52,440 nucleotides of DNA from a virus (Duplodnaviria > Caudoviricetes). Positions 46,878 to 49,119 of this stretch are shown piece after piece. The notes below the pieces were generated by a model. It was not told the origin of the DNA. It saw nothing but the letters and a program-made list of their open reading frames with translations, and ran no database searches. The position numbers and the translations under genes are program-made. Each line of letters opens with the position of its first letter. The stretch's first letter is position 1. Where the stretch lies: the IMG/VR virus record IMGVR_UViG_3300032069_000016, positions 1-52,440 of that record. The stretch is one strand, 5' to 3'.

Positions 46878-47600
46878 TTAGGCGGGGTCTGCTACATTCT
46901 TTAGGACTCCTACCCACGGCTCTGCTTTCAACGCTAATACCAAGTATTCGTTGATATAGAACCGCACGGTATCCGCTAACTTGGCGAGTTCGGTTCGGCC
47001 AAGTGGAACGAGGTCAACCATCTGAACTCCTTGCTCATCGTGCCGCAAGAAGTAAACATTGGAGACCAACGAACCAGTTGCACCTGACGACCCGTCAGCT
47101 TGGGCGGGATACGGAAGAGCAGGATTGGCAAAGAAATCACCGATTACGGGAACAGGGCCAAGGGGCGACTGATACTGAACGATATGCTCACCAGCAAAGA
47201 ATGTTCCTGCCTGTTCAACATTGATAAAGTAGCGGGCGGCAGTGGCAACAATTTGGTTCACAACTGCTTGTAAGCCAAAGGACAGATAAATTCCGTCCAA
47301 CTTGTTTCCACCCTGCAACCTGACTTTCTTTATGATTGCATCAAAGGCGGGAATTACCACGCCGACAGCCGTCAAAGCCGCACCTGAATTGTCCCCGACA
47401 TTGGTAACGATTTGCTTGTCAAATCCGTCAAACGCCAACGGGGTAACTGCGGAATCGGCTTTGAAATCAGCCCACTCTTCGGCTTGGATTATTCTTCGCA
47501 GGGACGCTTCGGCTATCTCGGCCTCAATGTCAATGTAACTCCTGCCTGATGCAATCATCGGGCCAGTAATTACAGCGGTCGTGCCAAGATACTTATATGC
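46878..47600 (-). CDS. Major capsid protein, exon 3
   Basis: AYKYLG...; HK97-like C-terminus YQSPLGPVPV, TELAK, EYLVLALKAE. Confidence 0.9.
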   Translation of the reverse strand, partial: AYKYLGTTAVITGPMIASGRSYIDIEAEIAEASLRRIIQAEEWADFKADSAVTPLAFDGFDKQIVTNVGDNSGAALTAVGVVIPAFDAIIKKVRLQGGNKLDGIYLSFGLQAVVNQIVATAARYFINVEQAGTFFAGEHIVQYQSPLGPVPVIGDFFANPALPYPAQADGSSGATGSLVSNVYFLRHDEQGVQMVDLVPLGRTELAKLADTVRFYINEYLVLALKAEPWVGVLKNVADPA

Positions 47601-47671
47601 CAACTGTTATACTCTTTTTAGAGCAGATAGGACATTTCTGCCTATCTCTTATAGTTTCCTATAAGTTCGGA

Positions 47672-48367
47672 CTATATCTTCGCCTTAATTTTTTTGACAC
47701 AGTTAAGAAGATTCTTTTTGAGTTCTCTGCTCCAGAAGCGGAGAACCGAGTATCCATTTTGTTGTAGTATCTTATTGGTTTCTTTATCTCTTGAATTATA
47801 TCTTGGATAATTATGCCAATACTCGCCATCGGCATAGATACATACACGCTTGTTCGGGATAAAGGCATCTGGAAATGTCGTGAACCGATTAAGATTTATT
47901 GGATAATTCTTATGGTATTTTATTTTCAACTCATCAAGTATATTCCACAGGATTATCTCAATGTCGGTCTGCTTCCAGTGGCGGAAACCGTTAACTTTTC
48001 GTTCACCATTGCGAAACTGACTTCTGACCTTTTTTGTCATAGTTCGCGTATATTTTGCGACCCTTTTGTCGGTTTCTTTGGTAAGTCCTTTATTCCAAGG
48101 AGTTTGGCCAGTTAATCCTTTATTCCACCCCGCTATTCTTTTTATCCAATCTTTTCGGTAGCAAGCGCGGGAACAGAACTTTCGTTTAATCCGATTCCCT
48201 CGCTTTGTGAATGATTTATGACACTCCTTACATTTGAACATCCTCCTTTTTCCTCTTATCGTTGCCTTGACAATATGCCTTTTGCCATTACGAATGCGTG
48301 TATATCTTCTAACTTGTGTTAAGGTGCTTTGCGTATAGTCTCTACGGACTCTCTGTTTTGTATTCAT
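47672..48367 (-). CDS. Intron-encoded Vsr/DUF559-like homing endonuclease
   Basis: CKEC..FCSRAC, WNKGLT x2, PDAF..IYADGEYWH..GYSVLRFW. Confidence 0.85.
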   Translation of the reverse strand: MNTKQRVRRDYTQSTLTQVRRYTRIRNGKRHIVKATIRGKRRMFKCKECHKSFTKRGNRIKRKFCSRACYRKDWIKRIAGWNKGLTGQTPWNKGLTKETDKRVAKYTRTMTKKVRSQFRNGERKVNGFRHWKQTDIEIILWNILDELKIKYHKNYPINLNRFTTFPDAFIPNKRVCIYADGEYWHNYPRYNSRDKETNKILQQNGYSVLRFWSRELKKNLLNCVKKIKAKI

Positions 48368-48373
48368 ACCTAT

Positions 48374-48402
48374 ATTATAAGATATTTATAGGCAGAAGTC
48401 AA
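48374..48402 (-). promoter_or_regulatory. Intron-internal promoter for the endonuclease
   Basis: TTGACT-17-TATAAT, ATG 6 nt downstream. Confidence 0.75.
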
Positions 48403-48487
48403 ACAGGTTGCCTCGGTATTGTCATACCCAAACTGGGTTTAGATTCCACCGATACAGCAAAGTTTTTATAGACGACCACATATTTTT

Positions 48488-48703
48488 AGCCGTCTTCTGA
48501 ACATACGCCGGGTCTGTTGAACTCGGTAACTGCCCATCTGCATAGAACAAGTTCACCAACCCTAACGGGCCATCTGCGACCGTATCCAACCTTGTTCTCT
48601 GGTTCCACAAGTGGGCGAGACCTTCTCCCTTGATTCTTGATACTCTGTCTCTAAACGGCGTGAGACGGTCTGAAAGAACGACTATTGCCGCTTCCAAATC
48701 CTG
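48488..48703 (-). CDS. Major capsid protein, exon 2
   Basis: QDLEAAIV...VQKTA, 72 codons, in frame with exons 1 and 3. Confidence 0.9.
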
Positions 48704-49017
48704 CGATTTCTGTAATCTCCAATTACTTGGAGTGTCGGACTATATCATCACCCAAGATTTTTTTAACAAAGGGACTCTCCCTTACATTGCCTCACTTAAT
48801 CGTTTCCTATGTTCTAATGAACGCCTTGGGGTCTCGCGTGTAGTCTCTACGGACTTTCTATTTTTGGGTCTCATAATCATACCTCTATAGTATGCTGTTT
48901 CTGCTTGCTTGTCAAGACCTTGAAATAGGTTGCCTCGGTATTGTCCCAATGGGAGTTCACCGATACAGCGAGATTTTCTTATACTGCATTACTGCGGTAT
49001 GCGCGCCAAGATATTTA
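48704..49017 (-). mobile_element. Group I intron 1 of the capsid gene (314 nt)
   Basis: IGS AUCUUG-GCGCGC pairs with exon ends GCGCGU and CAGGAU; P3 TCTCGC/GCGAGA; GTAGAGACTA; GATATAGTCC. Confidence 0.93.
48782..48880 (-). pseudogene. Remnant homing-endonuclease ORF (32 aa)
   Basis: Ends in NUMOD3-like RSLEHRKRLSEAM*; promoter TTGACA-17-TACTAT at 48915-48887. Confidence 0.6.
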
Positions 49018-49119
49018 ACGCGCCAACAAGGAACTGGGAATTGGCCCCGCGAACGATGTGTCCACGGATTTTGCAAATCTATCCAGCGCTTTCTCTAACC
49101 TGCTTAATGATTCGGTCAT
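49018..49119 (-). CDS. Major capsid protein, exon 1
   Basis: MTESLSRLEKALDRFAKSVDTSFAGPIPSSLLAR, directly downstream of the protease gene. Confidence 0.88.

Follow-up and report, generated by a model that had tools for sequence, protein, structure and literature searches.

Two related group I introns predicted to split the major capsid gene of an uncultivated tailed phage

The predicted major capsid gene of an uncultivated tailed phage (IMG/VR virus record IMGVR_UViG_3300032069_000016) is interrupted by two group I introns, which divide its coding sequence into three exons. The window analysed here is the whole 52,440-nt stretch of that record, in which the gene lies at 46878–49119 on the minus strand. 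Functional group I introns very probably lie at exactly the boundaries described below. The case is built on the anatomy of exons and introns, on colinearity with intronless homologs, on the match to a covariance model of group I introns, on guide sequences that pair with both flanking exons and covary with them among relatives, and on a homing endonuclease family encoded within one of the introns.

Exons, introns and the spliced capsid protein

Exon 1 (49018–49119, minus strand, as are the other exons and both introns) is 102 nt or 34 codons long, begins with ATG at 49119 and aligns to the N-termini of 106 homologs. Exon 2 (48488–48703; 216 nt, 72 codons) has a mean identity of 85.7% to 106 homologs and exon 3 (46878–47600; 723 nt) comprises 240 codons and TAA. 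Intron 1 (48704–49017, 314 nt) is without an open reading frame (ORF) and begins with an in-frame TAA; intron 2 (47601–48487, 887 nt) has an ORF-bearing insertion of about 630 nt in the P8 loop; both are of phase 0. Exons 1 and 2 end in T (49018 and 48488), both introns in G (omega-G, at 48704 and 47601). The original prediction had three exons joining in frame to give 346 aa, with each intron following an exon U and ending in G. This is borne out at every coordinate: the joined exons make up 1041 nt, 346 codons plus stop, in frame and with zero internal stops.

With exon 3 as query, 286 homologs were found, mostly of 343–348 aa, with shorter ones of 241–334 aa among them. The spliced protein was aligned with 106 listed homologs of 340–350 aa, to which it is 66–86% identical in amino acid sequence, with no frameshift. 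In all 106 of these full-length homologs, the 8 residues on each side of both junctions align without a gap. The junction flanks LLAR↓QDLE and QKTA↓AYKY (arrows mark the junctions) are conserved and form invariant columns in a 60-homolog alignment. An intronless homolog, P0003, was also aligned with the raw window DNA by a purpose-written protein-to-DNA spliced aligner, which permits introns only after T and with terminal G and which ran blind to the predicted coordinates; it placed introns at 49017–48704 and 48487–47601, both of phase 0. The boundaries are the same as those predicted, so that both forms of the homolog comparison uphold them. The expectation that automatic annotation would fragment the gene was also correct, since it is stored in a public collection as a 241-aa fragment, P0001. 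Two other kinds of intervening sequence were ruled out: inteins, by the in-frame stops after both 5′ splice sites, and group II introns, by the lack of a group II match in Rfam.

Profile and fold searches and the gene neighbourhood indicate that the split gene is an HK97-fold major capsid gene. For exon 3, phrog_752 (‘major head protein’) was matched at 1.5e-12, and a profile built from 60 homologs matches solved capsid proteins of the phi812 and SPO1 types (2.2e-7 to 5.2e-7). A precomputed match to the Pfam family PF17236 (SU10_MCP) is present in 24 of the 120 listed homologs of exon 3. The gene immediately upstream (49246–50970, minus strand, 574 aa) encodes a Peptidase_S78 prohead protease domain (4.3e-6) and matches phrog_80, head maturation protease; because it adjoins this gene, the capsid gene can be placed in a head-morphogenesis module. 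Two points count the other way. Exon 3 alone scores 19.6 bits against PF17236, under the cut-off of 24.1, and so is not a family member by Pfam's measure. The fold search, which gave 13 matches at E ≤ 0.001, the 12 listed being HK97-fold phage capsids or an encapsulin shell (SPO1, phi812 and SU10 at the top), is a weak check only, since it used an AlphaFold model of the closest homolog and not of the window protein, with a mean pLDDT of 53.

The peptide spanning the first junction has a contiguous counterpart in the 474-aa protein encoded at 50973–52397 (minus strand), upstream of the protease gene. The motif AGPVPKSLLAEQDLEG of this protein resembles AGPIPSSLLARQDLEA in the spliced capsid protein: at about residues 205–247, a 16-residue stretch resembles capsid residues 24–39, which span the exon 1/exon 2 junction. 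The local score of 66 was reached by 0/500 shuffles, with a shuffle maximum of 43. This 16-residue motif, common to both proteins, may be a shared protease-cleavage or capsid-targeting signal.

Ribozyme cores, guide sequences and the endonuclease of intron 2

The covariance-model check suggested with the original prediction was made with Rfam RF00028 (Intron_gpI; gathering score 50 bits). Intron 1 scores above the gathering score, with 62.8 bits (E = 1.2e-13) at 49027–48716 over the full model (1–253). Intron 2 has two partial matches, a 5′ part (48493–48326, 18 bits) at model positions 5–158, from P1 to P3′, and a 3′ part (47754–47648, 30.7 bits), in which the stretch from P8′ to P9 is well aligned. 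The predicted relationship between the two introns is supported by 67% identity over 153 nt and by four identical core blocks, each of which occurs exactly twice in the 52,440-nt window, one copy per intron, and is absent from the plus strand.

Helices P1 to P9 were located in both introns. In intron 1, P2 is a hairpin capped by a GUAA loop, and P6 and P8 bear long extensions; intron 2 is without P2, holds about 630 nt inside P8, closed by CCTTAA/TTAAGG, and has an additional 3′ hairpin, P9.1. The P3 helices of the two introns, TCTCGC/GCGAGA versus CTTTGC/GCAAAG, differ at three paired positions, each altered on both strands. An RNAalifold consensus was derived from 11 ORF-less introns of the family: 14 of its 25 predicted pairs are kept by two-sided changes, in P3, P4 and P9, and two-sided changes occur in 5/6 pairs of P3; the underlying MAFFT alignment of the 11 introns is poor outside the core.

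A guide sequence pairing with both exons had been proposed for each intron and was found in both. The guide of intron 1 (49001–49012, minus strand) forms a P10 of 6 bp (49012–49007) with the first 6 nt of exon 2 and a P1 of 6 bp (49006–49001) with the last 6 nt of exon 1. The guide of intron 2 (48471–48483, minus strand) forms a P10 of 6 bp (48483–48478) with exon 3 and a P1 of 7 bp (48477–48471) with exon 2. In both introns, P1 has a U·G pair at the splice site, and the P10 and P1 guides are contiguous. A contiguous 6+6 guide arose by chance in 44 of 200,000 random junction pairs taken from the same genome.

Counted from its first ATG, the ORF of intron 2 (47672–48367, minus strand) has 231 codons. 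The reading frame comes in from the P6 region and passes through P7, P3′ and P8, and its TAG stop lies in the P7′ strand. The encoded protein comprises a Zn-finger-like CxxC region and two WNKGLT repeats and, after them, a Vsr-like nuclease domain. It matches Pfam DUF559 (6.2e-9, 36.1 bits, cut-off 20.6), with matches to Vsr and MTES_1575 that are under their cut-offs; residues 30–103 match phrog_1271, an ‘HNH endonuclease’ family. A profile was made from five intron ORFs, namely that of the window, two from the related locus L031 and those of loci L038 and L007. It matches Escherichia coli Vsr (1cw0) at 2.9e-7 and I-Bth0305I (3r3p) at 5.3e-7. E137, D167, D180, H185 and D194 (in the pattern E, D, DG..WH, D) are invariant across the five ORFs and align with Vsr motifs E, PD, xWH and RD; W91, N92, G94 and L95 of the WNKGL motif are invariant as well. 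The ORF, the sole copy in the genome, thus appears to encode a Vsr-like homing endonuclease of the EDxHD, I-Bth0305I type.

Splicing that proceeds only with help, from a phage or host maturase or RNA chaperone, or from ongoing translation, for efficient folding, is a highly improbable alternative, under which the introns would not act in vivo as autonomous self-splicing ribozymes. Some group I introns do depend on protein cofactors. Capsid protein is needed in hundreds of copies, hence efficiency counts, and the long P6 and P8 extensions of intron 1 and the 630-nt insertion in P8 of intron 2 may slow folding. Against this, both cores are complete and close to those of introns of T7-like, staphylococcal and lactococcal phages, the intron 2 ORF has no maturase-like domain in a Pfam search and those phage group I introns that have been studied are, to our knowledge, self-splicing in vitro.

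Related loci, the proposed pathway and its rivals

The two introns of the window were compared with 38 related IMG/VR loci, which were searched by tblastn with the spliced protein and analysed with the spliced aligner. The tblastn search gave one colinear match in most loci and split matches in a few. The closest relative found, L001, is 86% identical over 346 aa and is without either intron. Capsid-gene insertions occur in 6/38 loci: in window residue numbering, at sites 34, 106, 111, 121, 261, 270, 313 and 323 in L031 (eight insertions), 89, 261 and 302 in L036 (three), 111, 302 and 331 in L038 (three), and 34, 34 and 305 in L033, L007 and L028, respectively (one each). With the window included, the total is at least 12 sites in 346 codons, from which it appears that the capsid gene of this phage group has been invaded many times by such introns. 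When 30 intronless relatives are compared for DNA conservation over 24 nt, the two window insertion sites rank at the 92nd and 96th percentile.

The insertions differ in how firmly they can be classed. At E ≤ 0.01, among the seven loci searched, Rfam matches were obtained for L031 (8 matches) and L028 (1) only; the insertions of L033, L036, L038 and L007 had no match at this threshold and are called group I introns by core-block similarity and P1/P10 pairing only. A 199-nt insertion of L038, with a P10 of 0 bp, is among the weakest cases. A 110-nt ‘intron’ near the start of the L007 gene was weak, probably an aligner artefact, and was dropped; the L007 join then has 25 stops, hence only the site-34 intron of this locus was used. 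The L028 join has 2 internal stops and its contig begins inside the capsid gene. The insertion at residue 89 of L036 (4237–4946) has an ORF with a LAGLIDADG-like motif, GILDGEG, and is not Vsr-like; more than one endonuclease family therefore seems to ride the introns of this capsid gene.

Introns that share a site are each other's best matches; one or both of the window sites are also occupied in L031, L033 and L007. At site 34, the last 6 nt of the exon in P1 read GCGCGT, GCTCGT and GCCCGT in the window, L033 and L007, with guides GCGCGC, GCGAGC and GCGGGC, respectively; the Ala codon is GCG, GCT or GCC and the guide pairing is kept. At site 106, one P1 pair is G-C in the window intron and A-U in its L031 ortholog. 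In the L001 alleles, the base before each site is not T (...GCGAGG↓CAG and ...ACAGCA↓GCT), so that intron-bearing and intronless alleles differ at the position required as U for P1.

Intron 1 of the window corresponds to the L033 intron minus about 600 nt, that is, the endonuclease ORF. In L007 the ORF of the site-34 intron is intact, and in L033 it is broken into two frames. Intron 1 is accordingly an endonuclease-less derivative of an intron that still carries the same endonuclease type at the same site in relatives, and L007, L033 and window intron 1 form the decay series expected of a homing element. For the study of the homing cycle, the family offers orthologous and paralogous introns in which an EDxHD endonuclease is intact (the window and L007), broken (L033) or lost (window intron 1).

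The most extreme case is the capsid gene of L031, at 3042–7202 of a 19-kb IMG/VR contig, with eight group I introns and nine exons. The introns are 232, 245, 238, 884, 267, 782, 238 and 234 nt long, and the exons 99, 216, 15, 29, 421, 25, 131, 29 and 76 nt. With the eight insertions removed, 347 stop-free codons result, and 279/346 residues are identical to the window protein. All eight insertions are Rfam-positive, six of them above the gathering score, and Vsr-like endonuclease ORFs are present in two. L031 is a metagenome assembly, and its intron arrangement is known here from DNA alone. Literature searches, which did not extend to the per-gene tables for Jug phages, gave no example of a phage gene that exceeds three introns or that has such short exons. 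Whether the capsid gene of this uncultivated phage group is an exceptional hotspot for group I intron colonisation is evenly balanced. If it is, with L031 a single molecule in which all eight introns splice, its capsid gene would outrank known bacterial-virus genes in intron density; we know of no protein-coding gene of a bacterial virus that is more intron-dense. Capsid production would then hang on a chain of ribozymes, in which neighbouring introns share a micro-exon for P10 and P1, and ordered or cooperative splicing would become directly testable.

In the proposed pathway, the late transcript of the window phage would be a 2.2-kb capsid precursor holding both introns, and each intron would fold into a P3–P9 ribozyme core. 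The guide would align the exons, forming P1 with the last 6–7 nt of the upstream exon (U·G at the cut) and P10 with the first 6 nt of the downstream one, and the intron would excise itself by two guanosine-initiated transesterifications, as in the group I pathway. The product would be an mRNA for the 346-aa capsid protein, colinear with intronless homologs. Ribosomes should be released at the in-frame TAA that opens intron 1. Tandem introns carry a recognised risk of exon skipping, and skipping of exon 2 would preserve the frame because both introns are of phase 0; the distinct P10 pairings should disfavour it. During co-infection, the endonuclease would presumably cleave the conserved QKTA↓AYKY site of intronless alleles, whereupon repair would copy the intron in; intron 1, 216 nt from intron 2, might travel along by co-conversion.

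Several observations speak against functional introns or against parts of this pathway. Intron 2 as a whole is under the RF00028 gathering score, its two partial matches flanking the ORF in P8. An in-frame stop in intron 2 is met only after 21 codons past exon 2 (ORF 48422–48697), and a ribosome running into the intron could interfere with its folding. No convincing, well-spaced ribosome-binding site was found before either candidate ATG of the endonuclease ORF, which makes its true start uncertain. No RNA runs containing 46878–49119 were found, and for this reason splicing is deduced here from DNA. The sole DNA run holding the stretch, X1, is a sediment metagenome and probably the source itself, so that its matching 17-kb contig is no independent confirmation.

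The missing RNA runs and the score of intron 2 also favour the view that the insertions are derived from group I introns but no longer splice, with the capsid gene either dead, in a defective phage or decaying prophage, or expressed as fragments that assemble post-translationally. Split phage genes that work without splicing have been described, for example Aeh1 NrdA, as cited in PMC7344957. This view is very unlikely to be correct. Core helices, U·G pair, terminal G and P10 pairing are intact in both introns, and the guide–exon covariation among relatives needs selection for pairing. The exons are under strong purifying selection, as the identities to the 106 homologs and the absence of frameshifts attest; exons 2 and 3 are without their own ribosome-binding sites and start codons at conserved positions, and the record, which has terminal repeats, is classed as a complete genome.

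That the intron arrangement is an artefact of metagenome assembly, with the intron of another phage stitched into the capsid gene, is hardly credible. The record is indeed a metagenome assembly in which group I cores are repeated (three in the genome), and the same run yields a low-depth 411-nt contig that has the core blocks alone in common with the window. In the 17,322-nt contig of a second assembler, however, there are 0 differences over 46500–49400 at a depth of 60, a weak argument, as the run is probably the source. The guide of each intron matches its own flanking exons, and three further viral contigs, all from different samples than the window, have orthologous introns at these two sites. 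We continue to prefer functional group I introns with the boundaries given above.

Genome setting, a third intron and known systems

The window is a complete tailed-phage genome: its terminal 91 nt are identical at both ends, and the IMG/VR record has a completeness rating of 100% and direct terminal repeats. All of its long ORFs are on the minus strand. The genome also encodes a portal, a large terminase, a tape-measure-like protein and baseplate proteins. A search for the host over genome contigs gave one 7.4-kb contig in a Micrarchaeota metagenome-assembled genome bin, which is uninformative as to host.

A third group I intron, very compact (180 nt) and of phase 1, lies at 37570–37391 (minus strand); with 47.0 bits, it is slightly below the Rfam gathering score of 50. 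It is located near the end of a 167-codon tail-fibre-like gene, the last exon of which has 14 nt (37390–37377). When the intron is removed, ...TFR + T joins the last exon to give ...TFRYDET*, a C-terminus conserved in homologs of about 167 aa; when it is retained, the ORF reads on for 176 aa. Its P1 is short (about 5 bp) and its P10 has 7 bp. An alternative 3′ exon, at an FDET-coding stretch near 37372, was ruled out by the C-termini of homologs. The 52-kb genome thus has three introns in total, all in virion genes.

Three further observations concern the rest of the genome. A gene for a GT4-family glycosyltransferase (45603–46799, minus strand; Glycos_transf_1, 6.9e-17; phrog_2170, 9.5e-35) lies directly downstream of the capsid gene and is an unusual neighbour within a head module. 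At 19400–21388 (minus strand), two adjacent ORFs of 247 and 413 aa have 43-nt 3′ ends that are 91% identical; the 413-aa ORF matches DNA methyltransferase families, and the pair may be a duplicated or split methyltransferase. In the intergenic region 26243–26322, a 40-nt unit is present in perfect tandem duplication.

The introns of the window have some practical and biological consequences. Unless introns are modelled, capsid-based classification and host or virus clustering will miss or truncate this marker. The findings add to the evidence against a restriction of phage group I introns to genes of replication and nucleotide metabolism. If splicing proceeds as proposed, two splicing steps, and possibly eight in L031, are compatible with the highest expression among late genes, which would imply fast and accurate ribozymes; the compact ribozymes of 180–245 nt may serve as tools.

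A search of a phage database showed that the 3′ core (P7′–P9 region) is 83–92% identical over 47–63 nt to known phage introns, namely those of DNA polymerase genes in T7-like coliphages and those of staphylococcal, lactococcal and Brochothrix phages. Because of this identity, the window introns can be assigned to the same broad phage intron lineage. None of the 55 matching records covers 80% of the query, the matches being confined to the short ribozyme core. The database-matched introns reside in replication genes, whereas those of the window reside in the capsid gene. Staphylococcus phage Twort reportedly has a gene with three group I introns; gene and host differ from those of the window, and three introns compare with two in the window gene and eight in its relative L031.

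As to the endonuclease, the structure 3r3p shows the catalytic domain of I-Bth0305I. This enzyme is the prototype of the EDxHD homing endonucleases, in which DNA-binding repeats are N-terminal and the Vsr-like domain is C-terminal (PMC3239194). I-Bth0305I, from the recA intron of Bacillus phage 0305phi8-36, is similar to the window endonuclease in being intron-encoded and in having N-terminal repeats and a C-terminal Vsr-like domain. The two differ in the site of the ORF insertion (P5 for I-Bth0305I, P8 in the window) and in the target gene, recA versus, presumably, the capsid gene; their sequence identity is low, with a single-sequence E-value of 0.025.

Short group I introns (about 206 nt) occur in essential genes, including terL, of the uncultivated, intron-rich Jug phages of gut Bacteroides, and metatranscriptome reads support splicing of 37/76 introns (PMC12880540). 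Jug genomes are of 360–402 kb with a mean of 18.5 introns, whereas the 52-kb window has three, all in virion genes.

The closest parallel is mycobacteriophage LittleE (Cluster J), for which PMC3706429 describes an 819-bp capsid-gene intron with splicing proven by reverse-transcription PCR and N-terminal sequencing; a capsid-gene intron of lactococcal phage Tuc2009 is also cited there. The rarity of capsid-gene introns implied by the original prediction was accordingly overstated. Capsid genes were not mentioned in a review of group I introns or in a database paper. As in the window, the LittleE intron follows an exon U, ends in G and carries a homing endonuclease gene; related introns occur in tail genes of the same phage group, and close relatives are intronless. 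The two systems differ in the number of capsid introns, one in LittleE and two in the window, and in the endonuclease, which is LAGLIDADG/HNH-like and encoded on the opposite strand in LittleE but Vsr-like and on the same strand in the window. Splicing is proven for LittleE and predicted for the window, and the capsid proteins are unrelated in sequence. Capsid-gene group I introns are already known, and the window adds a well-documented example.

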